This document shows positions 35,986 to 63,082 of a stretch of 64,000 bases of DNA, piece after piece. The DNA comes from a virus. Each line of letters begins with the position of its first letter. Within the stretch, counting starts at the first letter, position 1. The notes below the pieces were generated by a model. It made no database searches. It worked only from the letters and a program-made list of their open reading frames with translations, and was not told the origin of the DNA. A program made the translations under genes and the position numbers. The stretch lies in the IMG/VR virus record IMGVR_UViG_3300046816_000078, one strand, 5' to 3'.

Positions 35986-36282
35986 TCATCGCCTCATATC
36001 AATAGCAGCCAGAATGATAAACAGTCCCCACAAGATACCGCCAGCGGGACGGTAAATAGCTGCTACACTCAGGGAGACAATTGCAGCGCCAACGGTTACC
36101 AGTACTGCGGCACCGTTAAACCTACGGGCGAAAAACACCTTAACGGCACCACCGCCTCTTGCGCCTACGGCGCGAACGTTTCTACTGATGAGAACACTTG
36201 CACGGGTAAGAAACCTCTGAGTGTTCTTTCGGGCTTTAGATAGTGATGCCCTTTTCGGCCAAGGCTTCCAGGTCATCTGCAT
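35986..36282 (-). CDS. Small membrane protein, start uncertain
   Basis: The track ORF overlaps the terminase by 47 nt. An internal GTG start (MFFARRFNGAAVLVTVGAAIV...) would give a 2-TM 50-aa product. Confidence 0.3.
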   Translation of the reverse strand: MQMTWKPWPKRASLSKARKNTQRFLTRASVLISRNVRAVGARGGGAVKVFFARRFNGAAVLVTVGAAIVSLSVAAIYRPAGGILWGLFIILAAIDMRR

Positions 36283-38125: not shown

Positions 38126-38407
38126 TCAATATTTGTTCTCTAGCGACTCTTTATCGGTTGCCTTAGCTCGTGGCATTGCCTCGACCTTTTCTAGTGTTAG
38201 GCGAAGCTCGCGGTTGACGCTCGCTACTGCCACTTTGTCATCCTTGCCGTACTTAGCGTCACCGCTCATCTTGAAAGTAGCATTAGTTCCGTCGAGAACC
38301 TGCGCCAGATTGATCGCCATGACTTCCCATGCGCCGGTAGGTTCGAGAATGCCCCACTCGGTCAGCGTAGTCCTGACAGCTTGTTCGACTTGTCCGGGGT
38401 CCATCAC
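38126..38407 (-). CDS. Hypothetical protein, positional candidate for small terminase subunit
   Basis: 93 aa upstream of the HNH and large terminase genes. Start is either GTG 38407 or ATG 38404, overlapping the Pup stop. No motif evidence. Confidence 0.35.
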   Translation of the reverse strand: MMDPGQVEQAVRTTLTEWGILEPTGAWEVMAINLAQVLDGTNATFKMSGDAKYGKDDKVAVASVNRELRLTLEKVEAMPRAKATDKESLENKY

Positions 38408-38580
38408 TGCCCGCCCTTCTGCACATAGCCGCGAACGAATTCTTCTGCGTTTTCTTCGAGCACTCCGTCAATCTCGTCAAGCAGCGCGTCAATAGCATCG
38501 AATTCCTTGGGAGCTGGAATCGAAGTATCCTCGGTATCCTCGGTATTCTTGGGAGTTGGCTTATTCTTTTGCTCTTTCAT
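38404..38580 (-). CDS. pup: Prokaryotic ubiquitin-like protein (Pup) homolog
   Basis: 58 aa: MKEQKNKPTPKNTEDTEDTSIPAPKEFDAIDALLDEIDGVLEENAEEFVRGYVQKGGQ. The C-terminal 28 aa nearly match mycobacterial Pup as recalled (DDLLDEIDDVLEENAEDFVRAYVQKGGQ), including the terminal GGQ. ATGA overlap with the upstream gene. Confidence 0.8.
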   Translation of the reverse strand: MKEQKNKPTPKNTEDTEDTSIPAPKEFDAIDALLDEIDGVLEENAEEFVRGYVQKGGQ

Positions 38581-38885
38581 TTGGCAGCTACTTTCTCCTG
38601 AATGTCGTGGATCGGATAACCCCTGTCGAGGAAGTTTGTCGAGTACTCTCGGAAGTGGTGAGCGCAGAAATACAGGTCGCCGCCCGGAACCTCGATCTGG
38701 TACTTTGCGTGAGAGATAGGCTTGCCATCTACCTGCGAATATCCGCACTTGTCACAAGCTCGCCAAACCCTTTTTACGACCACGGATACGACTTCTTTGA
38801 CCTTCTTTGTCGCAGGTGTCATAATGCCCATAGACTGATGAGGCTGTGGGCGGGGGCGGTCATCATCGCTGCTGAGTCTGCCCAT
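38577..38885 (-). CDS. Zinc-ribbon-like hypothetical protein
   Basis: Start at MGRLSS (AGGAGG SD 9 nt upstream). CDKCGYSQ...LYFCAHHFREY is a pattern common in small actinobacterial and phage proteins. Confidence 0.6.
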   Translation of the reverse strand: MGRLSSDDDRPRPQPHQSMGIMTPATKKVKEVVSVVVKRVWRACDKCGYSQVDGKPISHAKYQIEVPGGDLYFCAHHFREYSTNFLDRGYPIHDIQEKVAAK

Positions 38886-39054
38886 GCCGATCAGCCTCCT
38901 AATGAGTTTGTACGGGTTCCAGATCATTGTTACGACATCTCTGCGTGTAATTCCACGCCATTATTTAATGGCTTAATTGGGTCCAATCATGTGATGGGAA
39001 AAGGCTCTAATCACTTCGGGTTTGTTCGAGTAGATGATAGGGTTCGCAGCGCTC

Positions 39055-39115
39055 TGACCTGCGGTTTTGTGTGTGTGAGGGGGTCTGGTGTTCGACTTAA
39101 GCCTGTGACCTGCGG
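39055..39115 (+). repeat. Two copies of the TGACCTGCGG motif
   Basis: tgacctgcgg at 39055-39064 and 39106-39115. The same 10-mer recurs at 41091, 41146 and 41173, and in reverse upstream of three promoters. Confidence 0.7.
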
Positions 39116-39178
39116 AAACTCGAGAAATTCAAGGTCTATAGAAAATGAAATGGGGACCAAGAGGGTCGGCAAGAATCG

Positions 39179-39209
39179 AATAAAAAATGGGCAAGGTAGT
39201 TAGCCTTGC
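39179..39209 (-). terminator. Intrinsic terminator downstream of the HNH gene
   Basis: Minus strand GCAAGG-CTAACTA-CCTTGC followed by CCATTTTTTATT. Confidence 0.55.
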
Positions 39210-39362
39210 TAATGGTGTGTGATTGCGCAATTATAGGCAGATGATTAGGGCAGATGATTAGGATTCCCCCAATTGCCAGGCATTAGGCGAGCTATTACCC
39301 TCCCATTGCATCGCTTTATCAGTCGCTATTCCAGCGCATATGTAGGACCCATACCCTCCGCT

Positions 39363-39815
39363 TTACCACTTAGGCAAGCGGGTATTAGTAGGCGAGCTAT
39401 CACGCTTTACCCGGCCATCCCTACCATATCCCCCACCATCCTGGGCAGGCATTCCTTGATAGCCCCTATCACTACTAGGCTTACTACCCATAGCACTAGG
39501 CATAGGCACACCACTACTAGACATAGCACCATTGGTCCTATCACCTAGGCTAGGCATACCCTTACCACGCTTACGCCTTATAGCCTTAAGCCTATTACCC
39601 AACCGCGCACCCGCACTCTCATTGCACGTACCATGTTCAATGCGGGTAGGCCCATTGCTGCCACCCATGGCGACGCTTATCACATGGCCTAGCTGTAGTC
39701 GCTGCCATTTGTACATAGGGCGATTACAACGTGGGCAGGGTGAGCCATTAACCATTGCGTCAATAGCCCTAGTCCTGTCCTTTCTATGCTCATATCCATA
39801 TTGCGGCTTACCCAT
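39363..39815 (-). CDS. HNH endonuclease
   Basis: CPRCNRPMYKWQRLQLGHVISVAMGGSNGPTRIEHGTCN motif. Start set at MGKPQYG (GGAG SD). The longer track start runs into the repeat array. Confidence 0.7.
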   Translation of the reverse strand: MGKPQYGYEHRKDRTRAIDAMVNGSPCPRCNRPMYKWQRLQLGHVISVAMGGSNGPTRIEHGTCNESAGARLGNRLKAIRRKRGKGMPSLGDRTNGAMSSSGVPMPSAMGSKPSSDRGYQGMPAQDGGGYGRDGRVKRDSSPTNTRLPKW

Positions 39816-39836
39816 GGGTACACACTCCATATCAGA

Positions 39837-39899
39837 TAGGCAGGCTGAGAGGCTAGGCAGGCTAGCTCCATAGGCAGGCTGAGAGGCTAGGCAGGCTAG
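39837..39899 (+). repeat. Two 29-nt direct repeats TAGGCAGGCTGAGAGGCTAGGCAGGCTAG
   Basis: Copies at 39837-39865 and 39871-39899. Member of the GCTGAGAGGCT motif family. Confidence 0.85.
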
Positions 39900-40134
39900 G
39901 CACATAGGTATCGTTACCTAACCGTGACATACTGGGTATGTAACGAGTGAACACCGTTAACTTTTGAAAAGATTTAGTCAGTCAGGATTCCAGACTTACC
40001 GCTGTATGGGCCTGAGAGCAACGCTGGCACTCTGAGAGTAAGCGTGTGCAATGCTAGCTACACGGTGCTGCCGCACCGGGCGCACAGACCGTCTGAGAGC
40101 CGCGCACCCGCTGAAAAGAAGTTTCCGAGATCCC

Positions 40135-40163
40135 TTGACAAACCCCAAAATCCTGACTAAGAT
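40135..40163 (+). promoter_or_regulatory. Sigma70-like promoter
   Basis: TTGACA (40135-40140), 17-nt spacer, TAAGAT (40158-40163), 40 nt upstream of the 40203 start, which has a GGGAGG SD. Confidence 0.6.
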
Positions 40164-40202
40164 GGTGCGTAGCACCACTTAGACAGCCGGGAGGCACACA
40201 GA

Positions 40203-40748
40203 ATGACTCGCATCGAAACTCTAGCCCAGAACATCCGCGATGCATGGAACGCCGCGAATGATGACCAGAAAGCACGCGGAGCGGTTTGGTACACGGTCGC
40301 AAACCAGCTAGCGGAGCAAGTGGGGAATGGCGACGTTCGCAAGGGTGCCGGAATCATAAGCGCACTCTCACCGCGTATGCGCTGGGAGCGCAACGTGCAA
40401 CTCGCAATCGACGCAATGAATGGCAAAGAGGTTCGCGGCCTAGGTGCCAGCATCCGTAAGGTCGAAGCCATTCTGAATGGTGCCGACCCGGAATACGTTC
40501 TGCCAATGGGTTCCAAGACGGGCCATTTCTACCGCAACATGGTTGACCCCACGGACACGGATGCCGTTACCGTCGATTGCTGGGCATACCGCGTGGCAAC
40601 TCGCGAATGGAATGCCGCTGGCCCCAAATCAGCCAAGGATTACTCAGAGGTTGCTACGGCTTACCGTATCGTCGCGAGTGAGCTAGACATGATCACAAAC
40701 CACGTGCAAGCGGGCACATGGAATTGGGCACGCGAGAATTCGCACTAG
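40203..40748 (+). CDS. Hypothetical protein
   Basis: 181-aa ORF with a strong SD, its own promoter and its own terminator (monocistronic unit). Confidence 0.75.
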   Translation: MTRIETLAQNIRDAWNAANDDQKARGAVWYTVANQLAEQVGNGDVRKGAGIISALSPRMRWERNVQLAIDAMNGKEVRGLGASIRKVEAILNGADPEYVLPMGSKTGHFYRNMVDPTDTDAVTVDCWAYRVATREWNAAGPKSAKDYSEVATAYRIVASELDMITNHVQAGTWNWARENSH

Positions 40749-40765
40749 TCCAAAACGTCACAAGG

Positions 40766-40798
40766 TGCCCCGGTAGCGATACCGGGGCATTTTGCGTT
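40766..40798 (+). terminator. Intrinsic terminator
   Basis: TGCCCCGGTA-GCGA-TACCGGGGCA followed by TTTTGCGTTTC. Confidence 0.75.
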
Positions 40799-40803
40799 TC
40801 TGG

Positions 40804-41060
40804 GCTGAGAGGCACCTAGGCAGGCTGGCAGGCTGAGAGGCTAGCTGAGAGGCACCTAGGCAGGCTGGCAGGCTGAGAGGCTAGCTGAGAGGCACCTAGG
40901 CAACGCTGTGAGGCTGAGAGGCTGGCACGACGTACCCTCTAGAACGCGCTGAGAGCGACGCTAACGGCATAGAACCTAGGTCTAGGCACATTGTCTAGGG
41001 TCGCACGTTTCAAGCGCTTAGAACGCTGTGAGGCTGGCAGGCTGAGAGGCTAGGCAGAGT
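40804..41060 (+). repeat. Array of GCTGAGAGGC / GGCAGGCT motifs including 2.5 tandem 40-nt units
   Basis: gctgagaggcacctaggcaggctggcaggctgagaggcta at 40804-40843 and 40844-40883 plus a partial third copy. More copies run to 41060. Confidence 0.85.
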
Positions 41061-41081
41061 GACCGATGCAACCAGGTACGA

Positions 41082-41188
41082 AACGCTGTGACCTGCGGTT
41101 ATGTAAATCCCCAGAGTATTTTCAAGATTCTTTTTAACGCTGTGACCTGCGGTTATGTGGTGGATAACGCTGTGACCTGCGATTATAT
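41082..41188 (+). repeat. Three 23-nt iterons AACGCTGTGACCTGCGGTTATGT
   Basis: Copies at 41082-41104 and 41136-41158, plus 41166-41188 (the last with 2-3 changes). Immediately upstream of promoter P0. Confidence 0.8.
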
Positions 41189-41202
41189 ACCCGATAAAGG
41201 AT

Positions 41203-41231
41203 TTGACCGATCCCTTGCCAGGGCTTACATT
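41203..41231 (+). promoter_or_regulatory. Promoter P0 (member of the conserved promoter/leader family)
   Basis: TTGACC, 17-nt spacer, TACATT, followed by TATGAATGTAAGGCA, matching the GTGAATGTAAGGCA box downstream of P1-P3. An ATTTTCAAGATTCTTTTT box lies upstream as at P3. Confidence 0.5.
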
Positions 41232-41434
41232 TATGAATGTAAGGCAGTGAGGCGCCGGGCAGGTTGCAAGAGCCGGAGCTAGAACCGAAAGGCCAGCAAT
41301 GGCGCGTCGGATGCTCCCAGACTTTGACCTTAGATGGGTGGCCAGTATCCAATCGCTAACCTTATGGGGTAAGTACAAAGAGGTTGTCTGGTTTACTAAA
41401 CCTGAATGCAGTCTTAGGACGTAAGTTACAAACG

Positions 41435-41495
41435 GGTAAGGGATGCTAGCAATAGCGCATTAATGACCGGGCTGGTTCGATTCCAGCGCTTACCG
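41435..41495 (+). ncRNA. tRNA-like module (T-arm plus acceptor-like stem, no canonical cloverleaf)
   Basis: GCTGG-TTCGATT-CCAGC T-arm followed by GCTTACC, which pairs with GGTAAGg 5' strand. The 28-nt interior cannot form D and anticodon arms. Confidence 0.4.
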
Positions 41496-41618
41496 CTAGG
41501 CGGAATATCCGCACCTAAGTCCCAAACCTAGTTATCTGTCGGATGTAATTCTAGGGGCGTAAAACGGGTTCCGATATTCCGCTGAAAGTGTCCGCACTCA
41601 AGTAAAGGAATTCGCGTA

Positions 41619-41801
41619 ATGCGTAGTGCTCACCTCCATCCGCGAGGTTTGAACAGTACCCACTACATGACTAAGGTTATGGAATTGGTCGAAGATTCCC
41701 GGCCATGCATCCATATCTTCGTCAACAATTTCCCGCTGGCAGTTCTCATAAGCATCATGGTTATGGGAACACTCGGAATCTTCATTCCTGCTAAGCACTA
41801 A
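41619..41801 (+). CDS. Possible small hydrophobic protein
   Basis: 60-aa ORF with AAAGGA SD. An antisense ORF of similar size exists and the region may instead be non-coding RNA. Confidence 0.25.
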   Translation: MRSAHLHPRGLNSTHYMTKVMELVEDSRPCIHIFVNNFPLAVLISIMVMGTLGIFIPAKH

Positions 41802-41880
41802 GGATTGGCAGCGCGTGGTTACGTAGGCTGTAAGCGTTGCGACGCTTACGACATTCTAGCGTCTGCCAAGTAAGCATTAC

Positions 41881-41934
41881 CGGGCTAACGGTTCCTCGCA
41901 ATTTGAGGATTGGGTTCGATTCCCAATAGCTCAC
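41881..41934 (+). ncRNA. tRNA-like module within a larger hairpin-rich region (about 41806-41934)
   Basis: TTGGG-TTCGATT-CCCAA T-arm. TAGCTCA pairs with cGGGCTA. One 5-bp/7-nt hairpin (TCCTC-GCAATTT-GAGGA) lies between and there is no D-arm. Confidence 0.35.
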
Positions 41935-41964
41935 TATCCCAATCCACCTAACTAAGGAAACACA

Positions 41965-42081
41965 ATGTCCGCTAGCGAATGGAATGCCAAAATGCAGCGC
42001 GATGAAATGCGCCGTGTTTTCTCTGCCAAGTTCGTTATGGCCAATGGCCGTTACCCGACCAATGACGAGTACCCGGTCTAA
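41965..42081 (+). CDS. Hypothetical protein (38 aa)
   Basis: MSASEWNAKMQRDEMRRVFSAKFVMANGRYPTNDEYPV with AAGGAAA SD. Confidence 0.5.
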   Translation: MSASEWNAKMQRDEMRRVFSAKFVMANGRYPTNDEYPV

Positions 42082-42254
42082 TGGGTGCCAGCGTCGTAAA
42101 CTACGTCAAGTCGCATAGCGACGTTATCGACTGGGCAGAGGTTAATCTGTCCAGTACGCCCAGCGAAATTCTCTGGCAGGCATTCAATTGCACGCCTACC
42201 GGGGATGCCAAGATCGCTATTCGCAAAGAGCTTTCAAATCGAAAGGAATTCTGA
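42081..42254 (+). CDS. Hypothetical protein (57 aa)
   Basis: MGASVVNYVKSHSDVIDWAEV... with a TAATG overlap with the upstream ORF. Confidence 0.5.
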   Translation: MGASVVNYVKSHSDVIDWAEVNLSSTPSEILWQAFNCTPTGDAKIAIRKELSNRKEF

Positions 42255-42257
42255 CAG

Positions 42258-42362
42258 ATGGAGTACGTCGAATTCTGGGCTACCGGGCGTAATGCTCTGG
42301 TCCTGGTTATTCCGGTAGTGCTGACGGCAGTGCTAGTCATTCTGGCATTGGTGATCCTGTAA
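42258..42362 (+). CDS. Small membrane protein (34 aa)
   Basis: MEYVEFWATGRNALVLVIPVVLTAVLVILALVIL. Confidence 0.45.
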   Translation: MEYVEFWATGRNALVLVIPVVLTAVLVILALVIL

Positions 42363-42469
42363 TGTCCACCGCTATTGTCGGCGCGATATCCGGCCTAGTT
42401 ATGCTCATAGGCTGGATATCGATTATCATCACACTCCGTAAGCCTGCCAATTCAACAGAAGAGGGTTAG
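42362..42469 (+). CDS. Small membrane protein (35 aa)
   Basis: MSTAIVGAISGLVMLIGWISIIITLRKPANSTEEG with a TAATG overlap. Confidence 0.45.
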   Translation: MSTAIVGAISGLVMLIGWISIIITLRKPANSTEEG

Positions 42470-42474
42470 TCAAA

Positions 42475-42768
42475 ATGTCGAATTCATTCCGTGTCCAGAG
42501 TGACGTTCTTCCCGGCGCGGCTAAGCTGGCCGAGGAATGCAACGAAACTGCGCAAGTGCTTATGAAGATCGTAGGTGGCGACAATTCCGTCAAAACGTGG
42601 GCGCACCTAGAGGAAGAAATCGCGGACACCCTCGCCGCCATCGCGTTCTTTCAGCAGCACAATGCGACCGACGTTAAGGGAATTTCCCGGCGCGTCGAAA
42701 TGAAGCTGACGCGCTGGAATGCGCGTCGCACGGTACGGCGTTCCCGTAAGCAGCGCGTTAGCGCGTGA
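42475..42768 (+). CDS. MazG-like nucleotide pyrophosphohydrolase (second copy)
   Basis: 97 aa. LAEECNETAQ...HLEEEIADT aligns with the 3442-3720 product. Confidence 0.7.
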   Translation: MSNSFRVQSDVLPGAAKLAEECNETAQVLMKIVGGDNSVKTWAHLEEEIADTLAAIAFFQQHNATDVKGISRRVEMKLTRWNARRTVRRSRKQRVSA

Positions 42769-42820
42769 GAATTGGCCCATATCCGGGTAATCCGGGTATG
42801 GGTCATTTTTTATGCCCTCG

Positions 42821-42857
42821 GTGTCAACCAAAGTTGACAGTCAACCTACGTTGACAC
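42821..42857. promoter_or_regulatory. Four GTTGAC half-sites in nested dyad symmetry
   Basis: GTGTCAAC-caaa-GTTGACaGTCAAC-ctac-GTTGACAC, downstream of the MazG stop. Operator-like, or a terminator hairpin. Confidence 0.45.
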
Positions 42858-42859
42858 GG

Positions 42860-43125
42860 CAACGCTGGGCAGGCTGGCACGCTGGCAGGCTGTAAGCCTC
42901 TCAGATCGATTCTAAGCCTCTCAGAGATCCGACCCTAGCAACCACACCAGGAAGGCTCCGAACGCCCGTTAGCGTTGCTCTCAGAGCGTTCTAGAGGGTA
43001 CGTCGTGCCATGCGACCCTAGCGGGTAGCGCTGTGAGGCTGTCAGAGCGACGCTGGCAGGCTGGCACGCTGTGAGCTAGGCAGGCTGAGAGGCTAGGCAG
43101 GCTGGCACGCTGTGAGGCTGGCAGC
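42860..43125. repeat. Second array of GGCAGGCT / GCTGAGAGGCT / AAGCCTCTCAGA motifs
   Basis: Contains aagcctctcaga twice (42895, 42913) and ggcaggctgagaggctaggcaggct (about 43080). Mirrors the 40804-41060 array. Confidence 0.85.
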
Positions 43126-51311: not shown

Positions 51312-51409
51312 ATTGAAAGAACTATTTCACTATCATTCTAGTCCGTTGGCACGGTGGATAGTTTCGTTTGGCTGCCAAACCTCTACGCGATTAATCCATA
51401 GTTCTCAAG

Positions 51410-51491
51410 TGCCGGATACTGGATTTGCACCAATGAAACCAGAGGTAACGGTTTTACAAACCGCGAGCTTTGTCTACTTGCATAATCCGGC
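51410..51491 (-). tRNA. tRNA-Tyr (GTA), class II with long variable arm
   Basis: Acceptor GCCGGAT/ATCCGGC, anticodon loop TTGTAAA, variable arm TACCTCTGGTTTC, T-loop TGCAAAT. Confidence 0.8.
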
Positions 51492-51552: not shown

Positions 51553-51647
51553 GGACGGGCAAGCACATCGAAAAAAGTGCAAAACACCAGGTCACAAGCT
51601 GTCTACCTGCGACGTTGCACCTTACCGCCGCGTCGTGCCCGTCCTAA
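51553..51647. other. About 95-nt nested inverted repeat at the divergence point of the minus and plus blocks
   Basis: AGGACGGGCA...TGCCCGTCCT encloses GTGCAA...TTGCAC and CAGGT...ACCTG. Its arms are related to sequence at 7036-7090. Confidence 0.6.
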
Positions 51648-51683: not shown

Positions 51684-51726
51684 TTGACATCTGCCCCAAA
51701 CTCGACTAAGCTGATCTTAGATCAGC
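51684..51726 (+). promoter_or_regulatory. Sigma70-like promoter plus overlapping 8-1-8 palindrome (operator candidate)
   Basis: TTGACA (51684-51689), 17-nt spacer, TAAGCT (51707-51712). GCTGATCT-T-AGATCAGC at 51710-51726. Confidence 0.55.
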
Positions 51727-52495: not shown

Positions 52496-52701
52496 GCGCT
52501 CTAGGCAGGCAGGACAGCCCGGATAGTGCCGTAGGCACACGTGCGGCTCTGCCGCTTGACACTAGGTCGCCGGGCTGGTATTGTTGTACTTGAGACACCG
52601 GCCACGGGACCGTGAAGGGCCGAAGCAACCCTAAAAATAGGGAGGTGTCCGGGCCTGCCGAAGCACCGAAGCACCCAAAGATTTTTCAAACTTTCTTAAA
52701 C

Positions 52702-52756
52702 CCGCAGGTCAGAGGCACCACCGAAATTTGACAAGCGGGCCGAACTGCCGTAATGT
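52702..52756 (+). promoter_or_regulatory. Promoter P1 with upstream CCGCAGGTCA site
   Basis: CCGCAGGTCA (52702-52711), 16-nt gap, TTGACA (52728-52733), 17-nt spacer, TAATGT (52751-52756), then AGTGAATGTAAGGCA. Confidence 0.7.
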
Positions 52757-52971
52757 AGTGAATGTAAGGCACCGGGGAGCAAGCGGGAACCGGGAGCGCA
52801 CGGATCTTGAAAACTCAAAAGTGGCTGGTGTACCGGCAAGGGGTTGCGGTAGCGATGGTTCTCAGATTCGCGATGAAAGCTCCGAGGGTTGATAAATCCA
52901 GCAAATGATTTTAGCTGAATTCGCGCTAACGCTAGATGCAAGCGCTCCAAAGGCTAAATGAAAGGCTCACA

Positions 52972-53256
52972 ATGTTCGATGCAATGACCGTTCGCGACCA
53001 AATCGGAATGATGAACGTGCTCGCAATATCGGGCGGTCGGTGGTTTTACGACAATTCGGAATGCACGGTAATTCTCCCCGTGCGCTACGGCTATAAGGTC
53101 GTCGTCAAGTACAATGAGGGCAGCGACGATTACACCGTTACCCGTCTGCACGTTCGCGGAACCAAGGTCACCGATAAGGGAACCAAAACCGGCATCTATT
53201 GCGACAATCTGGGCGAGGTTGCCTATCGCGCTAGCTGCTATCGTGACGAATTCTGA
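52972..53256 (+). CDS. Hypothetical protein
   Basis: Start at MFDAMTVRDQ (GAAAGG SD). 94 aa. Confidence 0.6.
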   Translation: MFDAMTVRDQIGMMNVLAISGGRWFYDNSECTVILPVRYGYKVVVKYNEGSDDYTVTRLHVRGTKVTDKGTKTGIYCDNLGEVAYRASCYRDEF

Positions 53257-53265
53257 GAGGGAACA

Positions 53266-53487
53266 ATGGTTATAGGTGTCGCGCTTGTAGAGCGCAACGA
53301 TAGCGGCGGCGTCAAATTCAGCCTCACCGATGATGATAGCCGTATTCGCGCTTACGTCGAAAAGGCTATGGGCATTTACGCGGTGCGCGATTCGCACGAT
53401 GAGCCGGTGCATGTCGGTTCCGCTCTTTACCGCAGCGCACTAGCGGCCACTCGCCGTTATGAGGAATGGGCAAAGGCGCATGGTTAA
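53266..53487 (+). CDS. Hypothetical protein
   Basis: 73-aa ORF with GAGGGA SD. Confidence 0.6.
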   Translation: MVIGVALVERNDSGGVKFSLTDDDSRIRAYVEKAMGIYAVRDSHDEPVHVGSALYRSALAATRRYEEWAKAHG

Positions 53488-53731
53488 AAGGACCGCGTTG
53501 CCATTCGAGGAACAGCGCTCATATAACGGGGCGCTTTTCCTCATTCAGATAAACGTCGAGCAACTAGAAAGGCTCTTTATTGAGGTAATCGGATTTGATG
53601 AAAGGCGTGCTAGGCTAATCCCTTTCATCGTTAACCAGTATGGCCTTTCCGCGCAGCCTGCTAAAGGTGGCCGCGTGGTTGTGCTAATGAATCCCGATCA
53701 TGGATATGACGTAGCACTAGACGTTTTTTAG
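53480..53731 (+). CDS. Hypothetical protein
   Basis: Start at MVKRTALPF, overlapping the upstream stop (ATGGTTAA). Confidence 0.5.
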   Translation: MVKRTALPFEEQRSYNGALFLIQINVEQLERLFIEVIGFDERRARLIPFIVNQYGLSAQPAKGGRVVVLMNPDHGYDVALDVF

Positions 53732-53739
53732 GAGACGCA

Positions 53740-53895
53740 ATGAATAGCCCGGCGACCCGCGACTTTCTGTGCAACCTGGAAAAGGATGAAATCGCACAGG
53801 AATTCTGGGTAATGAATTACCGCCACGCGCTGACCTTGGCCGTGCCATTCGTGGCCGCGCTGCTTATGGTCATTGCCGCCATCGTCGTTAGCTAA
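53740..53895 (+). CDS. Small C-terminally anchored membrane protein (51 aa)
   Basis: MNSPATRDFLCNLEKDEIAQEFWVMNYRHALTLAVPFVAALLMVIAAIVVS with AGGAG SD. Confidence 0.5.
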   Translation: MNSPATRDFLCNLEKDEIAQEFWVMNYRHALTLAVPFVAALLMVIAAIVVS

Positions 53896-53911
53896 GAAAG
53901 GACAAACGCAA

Positions 53912-54130
53912 ATGACCACCTACGTTTATCACGCTTATCTCGGTATTAAGTGGGAGTCCGGTTATGACTTCGGGCTATTCCATAAGAAGGCGGACGCTAA
54001 GAAGGCGTGCCAAGACGAGCAGGGCGATACGGTAATTGTCTGGAACAATTCAGACCGGCACCGTTCATTCGCTCCGTCGTCACTATTCAGCGACGGTACG
54101 TGGACCGTTACGCGCCGTCCTGTTCACTGA
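53912..54130 (+). CDS. Hypothetical protein
   Basis: Start at MTTYVYHAY (AAGAAAGGA SD). 72 aa. Confidence 0.6.
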   Translation: MTTYVYHAYLGIKWESGYDFGLFHKKADAKKACQDEQGDTVIVWNNSDRHRSFAPSSLFSDGTWTVTRRPVH

Positions 54131-54316
54131 CGAATAACCATTCACGTTAAAGATACCGTATTCCGATTGGGGTCCTGGCGGAAAGCAATGCAAGTTGCTG
54201 ACCATATCAGTGCAGACTTTGGCCAGGAAATAAGGATGATCACCGGGAGGGCGAGCGCAATACTTGGCCTTTGTGCCAAGCAAACGGCGATCGGATAATG
54301 CGGGAGTGAATAACAA

Positions 54317-54389
54317 GCGCCGTTAGCTCAGAGGATAGAGCAACGGTTTCCTAAACCGTGTGTCATAGGTTCAAGTCCTATACGGCGCG
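54317..54389 (+). tRNA. tRNA-Arg (CCT)
   Basis: Acceptor GCGCCGT/ACGGCGC, D-arm TAGCTCAGAGGATAGAGC, anticodon stem ACGGT/ACCGT with loop TTCCTAA. Confidence 0.85.
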
Positions 54390-54407
54390 CTCTGAAATTC
54401 AAGCACA

Positions 54408-54500
54408 ATGAAAGGGCATCACATGCTCATCGTCTTTATTCTTATGATCGTGGTTATCGTCGCGGCGTGTGGCGTCGCCATTCTGGAATGCGGGAGGTAA
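54408..54500 (+). CDS. Small membrane protein (30 aa)
   Basis: MKGHHMLIVFILMIVVIVAACGVAILECGR. Its 3' end supplies the GGGAGG SD of the next gene. Confidence 0.35.
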   Translation: MKGHHMLIVFILMIVVIVAACGVAILECGR

Positions 54501-54503
54501 ACA

Positions 54504-54899
54504 ATGATCAGTTGCGCGGTTAAGCAAATCGCTTACAAGAGGGCACAGGGACCGTGGGGTGGCGCGACAATTAGCGCCGATGGTTTCATGGTGCCCGATG
54601 GTGCCGACGCTTACGCGGTCGCAATTAGCGGCACGCTTTCCATTCACGAGAATGCCAGCTTTGCGACATTCGTCGCGGCATTCGATATGATAATGGCTGA
54701 CATGGGCGAGGCGGATTATGTCGGTGTCTTCCATGACGATGTTAAGCTGACCATTGATTTCAACGTGGTTGCCGTGGTCGATTCGACCGATGAGGTTGAC
54801 GCGCTGTACGCCGCTGGCAATCCTGTCACGGGTGGCGCGTATTACTTCGCCACGGGTGACGGGTACTGGCCGCAGGGAACGCCGTCAGAGTACGCCTGA
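54504..54899 (+). CDS. Hypothetical protein
   Basis: 131-aa ORF with GGGAGG SD. Confidence 0.65.
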   Translation: MISCAVKQIAYKRAQGPWGGATISADGFMVPDGADAYAVAISGTLSIHENASFATFVAAFDMIMADMGEADYVGVFHDDVKLTIDFNVVAVVDSTDEVDALYAAGNPVTGGAYYFATGDGYWPQGTPSEYA

Positions 54900-55007
54900 G
54901 ATCGATTCTAAGCCTCTCAGACCGCTAGGGTAGGCGATCATACCGGGTCGCCTGCCAAACGCCGTCAGCGTGGCTGTGAGGGCCGCGCAGACAGACAGGA
55001 TCGCATC

Positions 55008-55202
55008 ATGCAGACACAGACTCTCACCCGCGCAGAGCGTGACGAGCTTACCAAGGTTCACCGCGCTATCGCCCGGATTCACAAGAGGGTTAACAAGATC
55101 ACGACCGCGCAGCACGCACGGAATGAGCTGTCAACCGCACTAGACGCGCAGCTCGCAATCTCTGACGCGCTGGTTGCCGTCAGCAAGGCAATGGAGGTTT
55201 AA
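55008..55202 (+). CDS. Hypothetical protein
   Basis: 64-aa helical ORF. Confidence 0.5.
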   Translation: MQTQTLTRAERDELTKVHRAIARIHKRVNKITTAQHARNELSTALDAQLAISDALVAVSKAMEV

Positions 55203-55207
55203 TCACA

Positions 55208-55558
55208 ATGGTCAGCTACGCGCAGGCTCGCGCAATGGACCCGAATTACAACGCGGATGAAAGCTCCTATGCATGGCGCATTACCCGCGATCACCTCGAA
55301 TCCGAGACTGTTAGCATTCACGGTCCGCACAATGCGACCGATGCGCAGCTCGCAATTCTCGCGCACCCAATCAAGAATGCGGATCAGCTTACGCGATTCC
55401 GCATTTACGATGATGATGACGAGCTGTATTTCTCGGGCGTATTCCTGGGCGATTCCGAAAGTGAGGAAGCGTTCGGCCCGTTGGATGATTTCGGTGCCCC
55501 GGACTCTGGCGCTACTCGGATCGATTACCTGCGAGGCGAGGTGTGGGAGACGCTGTAA
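55208..55558 (+). CDS. Hypothetical acidic protein
   Basis: 116-aa ORF with GGAGG SD. Confidence 0.65.
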   Translation: MVSYAQARAMDPNYNADESSYAWRITRDHLESETVSIHGPHNATDAQLAILAHPIKNADQLTRFRIYDDDDELYFSGVFLGDSESEEAFGPLDDFGAPDSGATRIDYLRGEVWETL

Positions 55559-55600
55559 CAGGCTGGCGAGGCCAGAGTTTTTCTCAAAGTTTTTCGTTTG

Positions 55601-55654
55601 CCCTGGTCAGGGGCTTGCTCACGATTTGACAAGCTCCCGGCCAGCCTGTAATGT
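55601..55654 (+). promoter_or_regulatory. Promoter P2 with degenerate upstream site
   Basis: CCCTGGTCA ends at 55609, 16-nt gap, TTGACA (55626-55631), 17-nt spacer, TAATGT (55649-55654), then AGTGGATGTAGGGCA. Confidence 0.7.
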
Positions 55655-55798
55655 AGTGGATGTAGGGCAGAACGGGCAGGTCGGGACTGAGAACCGAAGG
55701 ATTCCTAAGTCGGAATCGCGTGGTCAGAAGTCCACCTTTGATGGTTCTGCGAATTACCTACCAAGATCGGCCAGCCTCGCATGAAAGGCTGGCAACGC

Positions 55799-55872
55799 AG
55801 GCGATTAGCTCAGTTCGGTAGAGCGCTGCTCCTACAAAGCAGATGCCATCGGTTCAAATCCGATATCGCCTA
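55799..55872 (+). tRNA. tRNA-Val (TAC), apparent C33
   Basis: Acceptor AGGCGAT/ATCGCCT, D-arm TAGCTCAGTTCGGTAGAGC, anticodon stem CTGCT/AGCAG with loop CCTACAA. Confidence 0.7.
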
Positions 55873-55912
55873 CTCAAACAAGACAACGGCATAGACCGAA
55901 AGGCAAAGCAAA

Positions 55913-57064
55913 ATGAGCACTCGCGAAATCGATCTCACTCCTGCTGAATTCGCACTCACCTCCAACAAGATCGCCAAGCTTAACGCCCGCGCCGCTAAGC
56001 GTGGCTGGACTGGAATCCTTACCGTTAGCGGCGAGGCTTTCACCGAAGTTACCGACAATGGCGTTGGCCTCAAGCGTGAGCGTCAGATGGTACACGTTAC
56101 CATTTCCGGCAATCCCCCGAAGTACGACGGCTGGACTTTCCTCGCTCGCGCCGATTGGGCCGATGGCGGAATGGTCCTGTTCACCGCGCCCGGTGTCGAT
56201 GGCATCGATCGCTCGGGAATTACCGAAGGTTCGTGCGATCACTGCGGAATCAACCGCTATCGCAAGAGCACTTACATTGTCCGCAGTGACAATGGTGAGC
56301 AGGTCCAAGTCGGATCTACTTGCCTAAAGGATTTCCTCGGGTGGAACACTAACCCGGTGTGGGTCATGCCGCCGTCCGACAATGACCTGTTTGGCGAGGG
56401 TGGCTTTGGCCATTCGGCCCCGGTCTATTCCGTCGATACCATTCTGGCCGCTGCCTGGGCTTGCATTGAGCAGTTCGGTTATGTTCGCTCCGGTGATGAG
56501 GGCGCGACTAAGGGAACGGTGCTTGCCGTACTCGATCCGCGTACCCCTGCTGAGCGTGAGCTTGCCCAGAAGATTCTGCCGCACGTTGCGGAGTCTGCCA
56601 GTGCGGCCACCATGATTCGCGAATTCATTCTGTCGGATGAATTCTCGGGCTATGGCGAGTACGTCACGAACCTTAAGAACATCGCTCGCAGCGAATTCGT
56701 TGAGCCGCGCTTTGTCGGCTTCCTCGTTTCCGCTCCGCAGGCATGGGCCAAGTCTCGCGAGCGTTCGCTTATCAAGCAGCGCGAGAATAACGAGCTTACC
56801 AATGAATTCCTTGGCGAGATCAAGGATAAGTTGGAGCTTCCCGTGACGCTCAAGTCCATTCGCTTTATCGAAGGACAGTTCGGCGTTACCTCGCTCTATT
56901 CCTTCGTGACCGATGATGGCCACCTGGTTAAGTGGTTCTCAAGTCGCGCCGTGTTCCGCGATGGTGACGTTGACCGCAGCTTCACTCTCAAGGGTACCGT
57001 GCGTAAGCATGACGAGTACAACGGGACCAAGAGTACCGTTCTTACCCGTTGCTCGGAAGTCTGA
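55913..57064 (+). CDS. Hypothetical protein with central Cys cluster
   Basis: 383-aa ORF with GAAAGG SD. CDHCG...STC suggests a zinc site. The two antisense track ORFs were rejected. Confidence 0.7.
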   Translation: MSTREIDLTPAEFALTSNKIAKLNARAAKRGWTGILTVSGEAFTEVTDNGVGLKRERQMVHVTISGNPPKYDGWTFLARADWADGGMVLFTAPGVDGIDRSGITEGSCDHCGINRYRKSTYIVRSDNGEQVQVGSTCLKDFLGWNTNPVWVMPPSDNDLFGEGGFGHSAPVYSVDTILAAAWACIEQFGYVRSGDEGATKGTVLAVLDPRTPAERELAQKILPHVAESASAATMIREFILSDEFSGYGEYVTNLKNIARSEFVEPRFVGFLVSAPQAWAKSRERSLIKQRENNELTNEFLGEIKDKLELPVTLKSIRFIEGQFGVTSLYSFVTDDGHLVKWFSSRAVFRDGDVDRSFTLKGTVRKHDEYNGTKSTVLTRCSEV

Positions 57065-57116
57065 CACGTCTTGCGTCCGTAGGACGCTGAGAGCAACGCT
57101 AAGCCGTCCGAACGGG

Positions 57117-57143
57117 CCGACCCTAGCAACCATGTAGGGTCGG
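57117..57143 (+). terminator. Stem-loop without U-tract (possible I-shaped terminator)
   Basis: CCGACCCTA-gcaaccatg-TAGGGTCGG, 53 nt after the 57064 stop. A second hairpin GCGTCC-gta-GGACGC lies at 57073-57087. Confidence 0.35.
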
Positions 57144-57229
57144 CCCTGATATCCGCTCAGAATCTATCTGAGAGCTGTCTAGCGCCATAGGTGCGCGACG
57201 CAGCCACGTAAACCAGAGGGAGACAGATC

Positions 57230-57415
57230 ATGCAGCCCACCGTTCCTAGCCCTGCCACCGTCCGCGCCAGCCTCACCATGGCCCGTATCAAGCGGGACAA
57301 TGATCGCCGTAGCGCTCTGCGCCGTGCTGGCGTCTCGGGTGCGCTCACCCGCGCAGAGCTGGCCGCGCTGCCCATCCTTCGGGACAATGCGCCCCACGCT
57401 AGGCGCGTGCGGTAA
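57230..57415 (+). CDS. Hypothetical basic protein
   Basis: 61-aa ORF with GGGAG SD. Confidence 0.5.
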   Translation: MQPTVPSPATVRASLTMARIKRDNDRRSALRRAGVSGALTRAELAALPILRDNAPHARRVR

Positions 57416-57627
57416 TGCCCACGTTCACAGCGGGTGATACCGTCGAGTTTGAACACGTCAAGTGGGCGGCTGACGGTAACGGCGAGCTTACGATCTTCGT
57501 TTCATGGATCGTTGAGCCTGCCACGATCACGCGGGTATGGACCCGTGGCCCTAACGTCACTCTCCGTACTCTCAGCGGGAAGATCTTCGTTCGGAGGGTA
57601 GATTCCAAGTCGATCCGATGGAAGTAA
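57415..57627 (+). CDS. Hypothetical protein
   Basis: 70-aa ORF with a TAATG overlap. Confidence 0.55.
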   Translation: MPTFTAGDTVEFEHVKWAADGNGELTIFVSWIVEPATITRVWTRGPNVTLRTLSGKIFVRRVDSKSIRWK

Positions 57628-57646
57628 TTTTCAAGATTTTTCATCG

Positions 57647-57701
57647 TCGCAGGTCAGCGGCCTGGCCAGGATTTGACAACCGGGTCGCCGCCCTGTAATG
57701 T
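57647..57701 (+). promoter_or_regulatory. Promoter P3 with upstream CGCAGGTCA site
   Basis: TCGCAGGTCA (57647-57656), 16-nt gap, TTGACA (57673-57678), 17-nt spacer, TAATGT (57696-57701), then TAGTGATGTAAGGCA. Confidence 0.7.
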
Positions 57702-58649
57702 TAGTGATGTAAGGCAAGACGAACGGGCAGGTCGGGACTGCGGCCGAAGGATCTCTAAGTCGGGATCTCGCGGTGAGAAGTCCACCTTTGATGGTTCGTC
57801 GCAGTAAGCCGAAACGAACGGCTAACCTCGGTAGTGGGGCCAGGGTGCGATTGGGCACCGCCACGGGAAAGGTTAGCAACCATAAACTAAACCACAAGCC
57901 AAAGCGGAACACGTGGCTAAGGGAATTCGCATGGTGGATTCCCGGCCCGGCGAGGTGACTCAATGGGCTTAGCAAGTGCCAGGTCTTGTGGATTGCGGCT
58001 AGTTTCGATTGTCCATAGGGTAATCGTGTTTCGGGACTTAGCCGCGTAAGCCAAACTGAGAAAGTCCTTCTTCTTTATCTAGCTTTAGCGGCCTACGGGC
58101 ATCGCACATAGTAGAGACAGAGACTAGCTCAATGGCCGGTGATAACGGTTGTACGTGGATTGTTAGGGACGCTTAGGCTCGGGCTTCCGCCCGGATAGCA
58201 ACCGAAACAATGACGATTACGCGGGTTCGATTCCCGCATTCACCGCTAGTGCGGGCAGGCAAAGAACCGGGAGCCGTCGCTGAATGCGATAACGGCAGGG
58301 GGTTTGTCCGCACATAAAGTTGGACAATGGGAACCGTCAAGAGCCTTTAGCCATAGATTAACCCTAGGCTGGCAGCTACGGCACATAAGCGCGATAAGCA
58401 GACAGCAACCGAAAGGGCCTGTTTGCTGCCTTGCGTGAGCGGTGTTTATGAACTGTATTCAGTGGGCGAATGGTGAAAGATCCGCGTTAGAGCGGGCGCG
58501 TTTATCGCAAGGGAGCGAAGCGGTTAAAACGGCTGACAATAGCTGACGGTATCCGGGGCGTGCGCACAATCCGGGGAGAATAAATAAGACGATAGGTCGG
58601 CCCATTGTTCTCAACTCTTATCCACCACACAGCAGAAAGGACAGGCTAA
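57702..58649 (+). ncRNA. About 950-nt ORF-poor, hairpin-rich transcribed region downstream of P3
   Basis: No SD-led ORF. Contains a conserved leader (57702-57810), the tRNA-like module at 58138-58245 and long hairpins such as GTGCGG...CCGCAC at 58249-58312. Confidence 0.5.
58138..58245 (+). ncRNA. tRNA-like / tmRNA-TLD-like module
   Basis: 5' GGTGATAACGGTTGTACG resembles a tmRNA 5' end. T-arm GCGGG-TTCGATT-CCCGC followed by ATTCACC-G. Interior hairpin CGGGC-TTCC-GCCCG. No anticodon arm and no G3-U70. Confidence 0.4.
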
Positions 58650-60824: not shown

Positions 60825-60992
60825 GCTCTCAGATCGATTCTAAGAGCCTCACAACCTAGACCCACCCAACCCTACCAGGGATGTACCAAAGGCCGCTCAG
60901 CGTTGCTCTCAGAGCCGCACACGGCACGACAAGGCAGACGCCCCCGGTAGGGATCGATCACGAGCCATGTATGAGGCGGCTCGTGGTCGGCT

Positions 60993-62696: not shown

Positions 62697-62849
62697 GGGG
62701 CTGAAAGGCTATCGACGTAATTCCTAATGCGGGTCCGAATCCCGCCGCGCTGATCGAGAATGAAATGGTGCTTGTCGCCTATCAAAGCGCGATCGTTTAA
62801 CAGGCAAGACTGGGAATTGCGGACTACGGTTCAATTCCGTACAGCTCCA
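62697..62849 (+). ncRNA. Miniature tmRNA-like RNA (tRNA-Ala-like domain, P2 helix, short tag-like ORF)
   Basis: 5' GGGGCTGAAAGGCTATCGACG and 3' TACGG-TTCAATT-CCGTA-CAGCTCC-A give a 7-bp acceptor with G3-U70. 9-bp helix CGTAATTCC/GGAATTGCG. Internal frame GCC...TAA (62744-62800) encodes AALIENEMVLVAYQSAIV. Confidence 0.6.
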
Positions 62850-62928
62850 CAGGTCACCCACCGTCATATCGGGACGCTGATATGATCAGGTCCGTAAGTG
62901 GGTTGCGGGTAACGACGGTTACCCTAAA

Positions 62929-63010
62929 GGGACAAGTACGCGGTGTCTCGCATTACTTAAATCCGTACATCGGCCGGTAATGCGGCAGGGTTCGATTCCC
63001 TGTTGTTCCA
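62929..63010 (+). ncRNA. tRNA-like module (acceptor plus T-arm, interior 8-bp hairpin or pseudoknot)
   Basis: GGGACAA/TTGTTCC acceptor (G3-U70), A73, T-arm CAGGG-TTCGATT-CCCTG. The interior CGCATTAC...GTAATGCG helix crosses GTACG...CGTAC. No 5-bp/7-nt anticodon arm could be found. Confidence 0.4.
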
Positions 63011-63082
63011 CTATAAGAATTCTCGGGAGTGACTAACGGGTAACCCTAGTCGGGCTATGTGTGCCTCTCCTGCTCCCGCGAA

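Follow-up and report, generated by a model that had tools for sequence, protein, structure and literature searches.

Paralogous promoter-like cassettes with a fixed-distance upstream site in an uncultured tRNA-rich soil siphophage

We report three near-identical composite promoter-like elements, P1, P2 and P3, in a 64-kb window (the whole stretch of DNA analysed, 64,000 nucleotides of the IMG/VR record IMGVR_UViG_3300046816_000078) of an uncultured soil phage, a novel tRNA-rich siphophage, which we studied by sequence comparison throughout. The three appear to be paralogous cassettes of ~105 bp that combine, in a fixed order, a phased T-tract box (the T-rich box), a site (C)GCAGGTCAG ending 15-16 nt before the -35 element, a predicted promoter of the primary-sigma (sigma-70/SigA) type and a start-region box, TGTARGGCA. 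We read P1-P3, with moderate confidence, as early promoter cassettes of the host RNA polymerase that are tied to a site-specific regulator. To our knowledge almost nothing is known of regulation in uncultured soil phages; the system described here, though real, represents a fairly ordinary type of gene control in phages, and its interest lies in a clean and comparatively supported regulon, with base-exact cassette geometry and a motif that recurs in several promoter architectures, including that at the head of the structural operon.

Geometry and conservation of the cassettes

The exact pattern TTGACA-N17-TAATGT has three matches in the 64 kb, which are P1, P2 and P3 (beginning at 52728, 55626 and 57673), just as a first-pass annotation made from the letters of the window had read them. 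With up to two mismatches, 10 matches were observed against 3.9 expected, and none of 100 shuffled sequences reached 10. The same annotation had spoken of consensus promoters, a term that fits the -35 element (6/6) and the 17-bp spacer and fails for the -10 element: TAATGT shares 3 of 6 positions with TATAAT (TAnnnT), so that a standard sigma-70 scan, which looks strictly for TATAAT, passes over all three promoters. The start-region box lies 6 nt 3' of the -10 in each cassette. It replaces a 15-nt downstream pattern proposed earlier, which is out of register in P3 and of which the invariant part is best written N6-TGTA(A/G)GGCA. Upstream, both the T-rich box before each promoter and the distance of exactly 16 nt between the end of the site and the -35 hold in P1, P2 and P3, the site being (C)GCAGGTCAG or CCTGGTCAG.

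These arrangements recur in related phages, for which we used metagenomic contigs (designated by L numbers) carrying homologues, at 70-90% identity, of a 383-aa protein encoded downstream of P2; a search with the strict DNA pattern added 25 contigs. The complete cassette is found two to four times per related contig at syntenic positions, and an alignment of 24 non-identical cassettes, drawn from the window and from 12 related contigs, extends over ~105 nt from the T-rich box to the start-region box with zero indels. Within this alignment conserved blocks, namely ccaAAG.TTTTtCAA..TTt.T..T...CgCAGGTCAG.GgC, GATTTGACAAcC, cctGTAATGT and agTggaTGTAgGGCAg, are split by variable stretches, and across close relatives the direct form of the site begins exactly 25 nt before the -35 in 21 cases. 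A profile hidden Markov model built from the relatives only gave full-length matches to P1, P2 and P3 exactly (E 1.1e-23 to 3.7e-26), and partial matches to the promoter core at 51684, to 39129-39094 on the minus strand and to P0, a fourth and weaker copy of the promoter type discussed below. Because the alignment is free of indels, the blocks are set between variable DNA and a profile made from relatives recovers P1-P3, these comparisons indicate that the cassette and its fixed geometry are under selection and not the product of chance.

The full pattern TTGACA-N17-TAATGT-N6-TGTARGGCA also occurs on actinophage-like contigs having few proteins, or none, in common with the window, and in a scan of a genome collection it was met in one of ~185,000 bacterial genomes, so the strict motif is a phage feature. 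The base immediately 5' of TGTA is T in 23 copies, A in 18, G in 6 and never C. Because the start-region box is independent of the type of leader that follows and in other phages stands before short 5' untranslated regions, it probably serves the choice of start site or promoter escape, or provides the RNAs with a common 5' end. A leaderless start-stop mini-ORF (NTG followed by TAA or TAG) is not favoured for it, as TTG, the commonest form, argues against a leaderless start codon. Two further identities were considered for the T-rich box, which is conserved in 24 cassette copies at 31-54 nt upstream of the -35. An UP element was rejected, since the box would lie at about -90 to -65 from the predicted start against about -40 to -60 for such elements, whose A/T-rich DNA binds the alpha subunit of RNA polymerase, and as the U-tract of an upstream terminator it has a preceding hairpin only at P2, the pattern used for other hairpins having been strict. 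Just ahead of P1, positions 52556-52700 contain a separate promoter-like sequence with a TG-extended -10 (TTGACA-N17-TATTGT), followed by ~100 nt that reach the T-rich box of P1; this stretch is kept in L002, L003, L005 and L007 and is a candidate small RNA, with an ordinary fold (z = -0.8).

An inverted repeat around the -35 element

In cassettes of the P2 and P3 type a stretch starting in CAGGTCAG is complementary to the promoter spacer, giving a stem of 11-17 pairs that encloses the -35 and whose outer arm, in P2 and P3, is the upstream site itself. The repeat is present in 14 of the 24 copies, with folding energies of -21 to -31 kcal/mol and z of about -1.9 to -4.6 (-3.3 or below in 13 of 14). 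The arms of P2 and P3 differ in sequence and register and each is nevertheless self-complementary; orthologues show the arm pairs CCTGG/CCGGG, CCTGG/CCAGG and CCTAGG/CCTAGG. The plus strand folds better in several copies by virtue of G-T pairs, and the minus strand folds much better in none. Among eight distinct P3-type sequences 88% of cells are paired in the named register, against 27-51% when the register is slid. The inverted repeat is real; compensatory evolution is not demonstrated, since in the P3 type a single pair has changes on either side, a score also reached in 81 of 500 shuffles.

Such a stem could in principle account for the site altogether: the 10-mer CCGCAGGTCA found at P1 and its counterparts would be the outer 5' arm of an insulating hairpin, an RNA or single-stranded DNA stem-loop or a terminator lacking a U-tract, and not a protein site, with its distance from the -35 set by stem geometry. 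The pairing of the arms with the spacer, their differing yet self-complementary sequences and the better fold of the plus strand all suit this idea, as does the finding that the stem-loops of the PeSL (promoter-early stem-loop) elements of T4-type phages work as terminators (PMC2839356). We nonetheless consider it unlikely, for the 3' arm is an unfaithful inverted copy of the site, the covariation is not significant, and the motif is phased at P0 and at the late promoter, where there are no hairpins. P1-type copies keep the site at the same distance without having the repeat, so the site is more than a stem arm. As for the stem where it does occur, analogy with PeSL makes insulation of the unit from upstream transcription its likeliest role. 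Terminators without U-tracts are common in actinobacteria.

A wider operator-like motif

With at most one mismatch, CCGCAGGTCA occurs 13 times in the window against 4.2 expected, and none of 100 shuffles reached 13; occurrence at chance frequency had been named beforehand as a possible refutation of the regulon, and the motif is above chance. There are five exact copies, at 52702 on the plus strand and at 39055, 39106, 41089 and 41143 on the minus strand, and one-mismatch copies include those at 41173 (minus) and 57647 (plus). The 10-mer is one form of a wider operator-like motif, GTGACCTGCG, of which the 64 kb hold 7-8 copies in both orientations. It is met as the GCAGGTCA site at the cassettes, and has the variants TGACCTGCG and TGACCTGGG. 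In relatives it additionally takes a palindromic form, GTGAC-N4-GTCAC, whose end abuts the -35 of another class of promoters, and is also seen as a half-site with an inverted copy. Because the motif is conserved, present in both orientations and phased to promoters, we infer a sequence-specific DNA-binding factor, and a regulon of promoters served by such a factor would fit the data.

The palindromic forms raise the possibility that the reader is a host global regulator of the CRP/GlxR type (TGTGA-N6-TCACA), recruited to sense host physiology. Palindromes such as TGTGATGCAGGTCACA in L011 and TGTGACGCAGGTCACG in L003 fit that consensus and end at the -35 in the manner of class II sites. However, every copy in the window has one half-site only, full palindromes of the CRP/FNR type being confined to relatives and unrelated contigs; the conserved CCTGCG falls in the centre, which CRP-type proteins do not read; and at P1-P3 the site is centred at about -57, off the usual class I face. 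On balance a host regulator of this kind is improbable, and the CRP/FNR-type site was rejected as a description of the window copies.

A variant of the motif, TGACCTGG, was also noticed at 51586-51613, in a hairpin (GTCGCAGGTAGACAGCTTGTGAC followed by a T-run on the minus strand) situated in the divergent region between two tRNA blocks and kept in L005, L009 and L030.

Leaders and modular exchange of the cassettes

Three types of leader follow the cassettes in varied combinations, and within the window type II is found at P1 and type III at P0, P2 and P3. The leaders of P2 and P3 are 84% identical over 63 nt without gaps (88% over 78 nt by BLAST), and the long type III hairpin is closed by GCAGAAC/GTTCTGC in P2 and by GACGAAC/GTTCGTC in P3; five type III leaders were too few for an informative consensus fold. 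The type I leader, seen in relatives only, is an RNA of two hairpins; of its 15 pairs, 8 carry compensatory changes and all are intact. It is located at L002:6869-6965, L003:6782-6880, L016:326-440 and ten other places. A covariance model of it made from the relatives had no match in the window (best E 1.6). The leaders and promoter regions match no Rfam family at E up to 1, tRNA and tmRNA-like families giving the only matches, and type I is likewise unmatched.

The edges of the cassettes coincide with mosaic breakpoints. Compared with L005, L002 and L003, the window loses similarity at 52631/52670 and 54990/55567, and at 57731/57812 the type III leader of the window replaces a type II leader in L005, after which 77 nt are 98.7% identical. 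In L002 only the cassettes align at P2 and P3, and the alignment at P1 stops just past the -35 (52742); the copy at 6834 of the same contig is a chimera in which the upstream half is of class A and the -10, start region and leader belong to another promoter class. Likewise, L005 (at 5264) and L030 have the T-rich box and the site before a promoter core of the 51684 type, which in the window lacks both. Furthermore, a cassette with promoter and leader is present between two orthologous ORFs in L003, L005 and L016 and absent from the corresponding place, 61528, in the window. These comparisons suggest that the cassettes are modular recombination units with interchangeable upstream modules, cores and leaders, serving as junctions for the exchange of early-region genes, tRNAs and leader RNAs.

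Mobility of this kind invites the explanation that the conservation merely reflects recent duplication or gene conversion of a mobile module, the upstream 10-mer having no function of its own. It is true that the cassettes form islands of similarity in unrelated DNA and that chimeras and differences of presence and absence are found. But inside the cassettes conserved blocks alternate with freely varying DNA, both across paralogues and across phages whose proteins are 70-90% identical, a pattern expected from selection, and the motif occurs outside the cassettes too, with conserved geometry. We therefore regard duplication without function as quite improbable.

P0, the structural-operon promoter region and the 38.9-43.1 kb hub

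The first-pass annotation had described P0 (41203) as having a downstream box, TGTAAGGCA, and a TATTTTCAAGATTCTTTTT box, and both are present. It had also listed five copies of the 10-mer at 39055-41182 as iterons; all five are there, four of them exact and one with a single mismatch. The copies before P0 are inverted (AACGCTGTGACCTGCG), and their distances from the P0 -35 (see Table 1) are the same in L038, L039 and L040 and nearly so in L037 (124, 59 and 29 nt). The remaining two belong to the region upstream of the structural operon, where the order on the minus strand is an HNH gene, a terminator-like hairpin, a T-rich box, a distal site, a proximal site (CCGCAGGTCAGAGCGC) and TATCAT (39034-39039). 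The proximal site occupies the position expected for a -35, 14 nt ahead of TATCAT. The region lacks any hexamer resembling a -35, and its blocks are kept in four phages. The earlier proposal of a dedicated regulon with a regulator site stands as far as the promoter family and its fixed-distance site are concerned, both being real and constrained (24 indel-free copies, and the geometry of P0 and the structural operon in four other phages); no regulator gene was found among the 30 window ORFs scanned against Pfam.

Origin iterons are tandem direct repeats that lie beside an initiator gene and AT-rich unwinding DNA. The iteron label implies that the TGACCTGCGG copies at 39-41 kb are origin repeats bound by an initiator, the promoter-linked copies being secondary and coupling transcription to replication. 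The copies are indeed clustered and direct, lie in a largely non-coding hub at 38.9-43.1 kb together with other repeat arrays, and include a regular 30-bp spacing. Yet they are spaced 54 and 30 nt apart in phase with the -35 of P0 in four of five phages, and stand directly upstream of promoters; the adjacent genes encode an HNH nuclease, a DUF7178 protein and a Pup-like protein, with no replication initiator nearby; and the GC skew turns at ~52 kb, where transcription diverges, and not at 39-41 kb. Because the copies at 39055-41182 are phased to promoters, operator arrays describe them better than origin repeats. The copies are real, the iteron label is doubtful, and we hold the replication reading to be very improbable.

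The DUF7178 gene (40203-40748, plus strand), which lies between the site arrays, was considered as a source of the regulator and rejected: its structural model (pLDDT 94) has no transcription-factor fold, and the best matches, weak ones, are to 8-oxoguanine/HhH-GPD DNA glycosylases (TM ~0.5, E 0.4-0.7).

Several other features of the hub may be recorded. Downstream of P0, a tRNA-like end at 41435-41499 includes a segment (41471-41499) 83% identical to the T-arm/acceptor end at 58221-58249, and a second tRNA-like end at 41881-41933 has a weak mascRNA-like match (E 0.1); these ends may be processing signals within the P0 transcript. On both sides of the DUF7178 gene and the P0 unit, at 39816-43120, lie dense arrays of a repeat with 8-nt periodicity (GGCTGAGA / GGCTGGCA / GGCTAGGC), among them a perfect pair of 40-nt units at 40804-40883; of 27 occurrences of CTGAGAG (8.3 expected), most fall in this interval. 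These arrays could represent an origin, a packaging site or a further operator array. A 90-nt intergenic repeat bounded by CTCTCAG has three copies (42898-42987, 54894-54983 and 60826-60915; 66-74% identical), two of which come directly after early-region ORFs.

Table 1. Positions in the window of the cassette components and associated features
Feature	Position	Strand	Details
P1 T-rich box	52674-52697	+	CCCAAAGATTTTTCAAACTTTCTT
P1 operator-like site	52702-52712	+	CCGCAGGTCAG; CCGCAGGTCA at 52702-52711; 16 nt before -35
P1 core	52728-52756	+	TTGACA-N17-TAATGT; -35 52728-52733, -10 52751-52756; predicted from sequence
P1 start-region box	52763-52771	+	TGTAAGGCA; predicted transcription start falls within
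P1 leader	52772-52935	+	Type II, contains CTTGAAAACTCAAAAGTGG; before ORF 52936-53256
Terminator-like hairpin and T-run	55563-55584	+	Runs into P2 T-rich box
P2 T-rich box	55572-55596	+	
P2 degenerate site	55601-55610	+	CCCTGGTCAG; CCCTGGTCA ends at 55609
P2 inverted repeat enclosing -35	55603-55644	+	Arms 55603-55617 and 55630-55644
P2 core	55626-55654	+	TTGACA-N17-TAATGT; -35 55626-55631, -10 55649-55654; predicted from sequence
P2 start-region box	55661-55669	+	TGTAGGGCA
P2 leader	55670-55798	+	Type III, long hairpin; directly before tRNA-Val 55799-55873
P3 T-rich box	57620-57644	+	
P3 site	57647-57657	+	tCGCAGGTCAG; tCGCAGGTCA at 57647-57656
P3 inverted repeat enclosing -35	57649-57696	+	Arms 57649-57665 and 57680-57696
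P3 core	57673-57701	+	TTGACA-N17-TAATGT; -35 57673-57678, -10 57696-57701; predicted from sequence
P3 start-region box	57708-57716	+	TGTAAGGCA
P3 leader	57717-57810	+	Type III, long hairpin
P0	41203-41246	+	TTGACC-N17-TACATT-N6-TGTAAGGCA
Three inverted operator-like copies	41089-41182	-	41089-41098, 41143-41152, 41173-41182; start 114, 60 and 30 nt before P0 -35
T-rich box among the P0 operator-like copies	41111-41135		
T-rich box and two operator-like copies	39055-39150	-	Copies 39106-39115 and 39055-39064; upstream of structural operon

Comparison with known phage control systems

The closest known design appears to be the PeSL of T4-type phages, in which a sigma-70-type promoter with an AT-rich upstream region carries a stem-loop between or over the -35 and -10, and which is involved in gene shuffling (PMC2839356; PMC4122927). 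Like it, the present cassette is a repeated composite motif of ~100 bp with a predicted strong sigma-70-like promoter, placed among small ORFs and tRNA genes of a variable region, whose copies flank variable small genes and mark the breakpoints of indels and replacements, recombination between copies shuffling genes. A/T-rich upstream DNA is common to both, adjacent to the promoter in PeSL and here in the form of the T-rich box, 31-54 nt from the -35. There are also differences: here the stem encloses the -35 and is found in two of the three window copies (P2, P3 and orthologues, 14 of 24 in all, none of the P1 type, and with weak covariation), and the cassette has two extra elements, the asymmetric fixed-distance site and the conserved start-region box. 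Moreover, PeSL belongs to T4-like myoviruses, while the window has a siphophage module with a tape-measure protein and a terminase 36% identical to those of actinophages, and the two systems show no sequence relatedness. The promoter-terminator cassette idea of T4-type phages would in this way extend to an unrelated, probably actinobacterial, siphophage lineage.

The same kind of core promoter is found in the Actinoplanes phage phiAsp2 (NC_005885, L042), which has at least 12 near-identical intergenic promoters of the form TTGACAC-N17-(c/g)(t/g)GTAATGT/GTAAGGT. They (TTGACACTTCACAGTCAAGCCTGTAATGT and variants) occupy record positions 32111-56866 on both strands, and none is annotated. In phiAsp2 the whole spacer is identical between copies, and the T-rich box, the GCAGGTCA site and the TGTARGGCA box are missing. 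No protein similarity to the window was seen in the phiAsp2-like contigs L013-L015, and L012 gave one weak match. That TAATGT...TGTAGGGCAG should be read by a phage polymerase or sigma factor instead of the host primary sigma, in a loosely T7-like layout (TAAT...TATA-GGG), is highly improbable, since neither the spread of the start-region box over many unrelated phage contigs, against the single bacterial genome with the pattern, nor the weak sigma-70 region-4-like protein of the distant relative L010 offsets the perfect TTGACA at exactly 17 bp in every copy (even copies found without requiring the box), the lack of an RNA polymerase gene in the window (where the largest ORFs are tape-measure and structural), the lack of an orthologue of the L010 protein in the window or close relatives, and the same -35/-10 type without the box in the annotated half of phiAsp2 (positions 20000-58638), which lists no RNA polymerase. 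A promoter for a T7-type single-subunit polymerase, which would have a conserved block of ~23 bp from -17 to +6, was rejected on the same grounds as far as the 64-kb window goes, a conserved -35 at 17 bp arguing for a sigma-type enzyme.

Two other comparisons concern the site. The stoperators of cluster A mycobacteriophages, bound by the L5 repressor gp71, are short asymmetric sites, repeated many times, whose orientation matters and is constant with respect to transcription. As there, a short asymmetric site is repeated in the intergenic DNA of an actinophage, with one copy at a promoter; here, however, there are 7-8 copies per 64 kb in mixed orientation, upstream of promoters and not in transcribed DNA, and neither a repressor nor an integrase was seen, no repressor-like protein being among the 30 ORFs scanned. 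Phage phi29 p4 and T4 MotA (box at -30) are single phage regulators that switch transcription from early to late. The window is reminiscent of them in that one motif stands upstream of the predicted strong early promoters and replaces the -35 in the structural-operon promoter region, although the motif sequence is unrelated and no homologue of p4 or MotA/AsiA was found.

Proposed mode of action

Based on these observations we propose that the host RNA polymerase most likely initiates at the cassettes early in infection, yielding units in which a structured leader RNA would be followed by tRNA genes and small ORFs, and that one sequence-specific factor reading GTGACCTGCG may join these promoters in a common timing of expression. 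The factor would likely activate where the -35 is missing or weak, and modulate or shut off transcription at the strong early promoters. The inverted repeat of P2 and P3 would probably form a hairpin that insulates each unit from upstream transcription, and the cassettes would double as recombination modules. If so, they represent compact, predicted strong and probably portable promoters, and the motif gives a defined bait for fishing out the regulator.

A more far-reaching version of this proposal, which we rate as unlikely to hold in full, would join cassette, site and leader into a single dedicated system of control in an uncultured lineage of actinophages. Its reader, a phage protein, would recognise GTGACCTGCG in four arrangements (direct at about -57, as inverted phased triplets, in place of the -35, and as a palindrome abutting the -35), and thereby set the early and late programme. 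The three leader types would act in cis on the polymerase by antitermination or processing, like the put RNAs of phage HK022, and would permit read-through of tRNA genes and of hairpins in downstream cassettes.

Several points weigh against our proposal. The -10 is weak by the standard of E. coli. The site is direct at P1-P3 and the late promoter and inverted at P0, so that a single simple mode of action is not obvious. No DNA-binding Pfam domain was detected in 30 window ORFs (~24 from the early region and 6 from the 38-44 kb hub), and the DUF7178 model looks, if weakly, more like a glycosylase than a regulator. The hairpin, for its part, is missing from P1-type copies, and in the P3 type its pairing lacks significant covariation. 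Finally, similarity among the paralogues could partly reflect recent duplication or gene conversion as opposed to selection on each block.

Genomic setting and further observations

The minus strand of the window encodes a large terminase (36236-37882), portal, protease, major capsid and tape-measure (16726-20751) proteins, as well as a DNA polymerase and a class II ribonucleotide reductase. A DNA-level near-identity search of the 50-60 kb region against GenBank phages and plasmids gave no match, and in IMG/VR only one distant relative of the neighbouring 383-aa gene was retrieved, with no exact copy of the leader. The terminase shows no more than ~36% identity to its counterparts in Rhodococcus, Arthrobacter and Mycobacterium phages. 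The structural operon opens with genes at 38404-38748 and 38577-38927 (minus strand) for a Pup-like protein and a DUF7455 protein, the former matching Pfam PF05639 with E 4e-19 (69.8 bits, cut-off 27). Tagging with Pup is characteristic of actinobacteria. The Pup-like gene, together with the occurrence of the same promoter type in the Actinoplanes phage phiAsp2, makes an actinobacterium the probable host, and a phage-encoded ubiquitin-like tag may have a function in host takeover.

P1, P2 and P3 are all on the plus strand and head the region of small ORFs and tRNA genes. Downstream of P1 come the ORFs of 52936-54130, a tRNA-Arg gene and more small ORFs; downstream of P2 a 137-nt leader, tRNA-Val and the gene for the 383-aa protein; and downstream of P3 ~900 nt of conserved non-coding DNA with a tRNA-like element, followed by tRNA-Leu and further genes. 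The non-coding DNA after P3 (57812-57888 and 58137-58640) is better conserved than the surrounding coding DNA, with 98.7% identity to L005 over 77 nt and 86-88% to L002 over 113 and 302 nt, and the 93-nt tRNA-like element within it (58154-58246) has an odd anticodon loop and a weak tmRNA match; the stretch may contain one or more structured RNAs of a new type.

The tRNA genes of the window, 21 in all, form two divergent blocks. The minus-strand block is headed by 51405-51490 (minus strand), a tRNA-Tyr-like sequence with an acceptor and T-arm, a GTA anticodon loop and a long variable arm, probably an extra tRNA missed by both tools. A tmRNA-like gene at 62697-63017, which was not called by ARAGORN, matches Rfam RF00023 with 52 bits over 62697-62852 and has a T-arm/acceptor-like end at 62988-63017.

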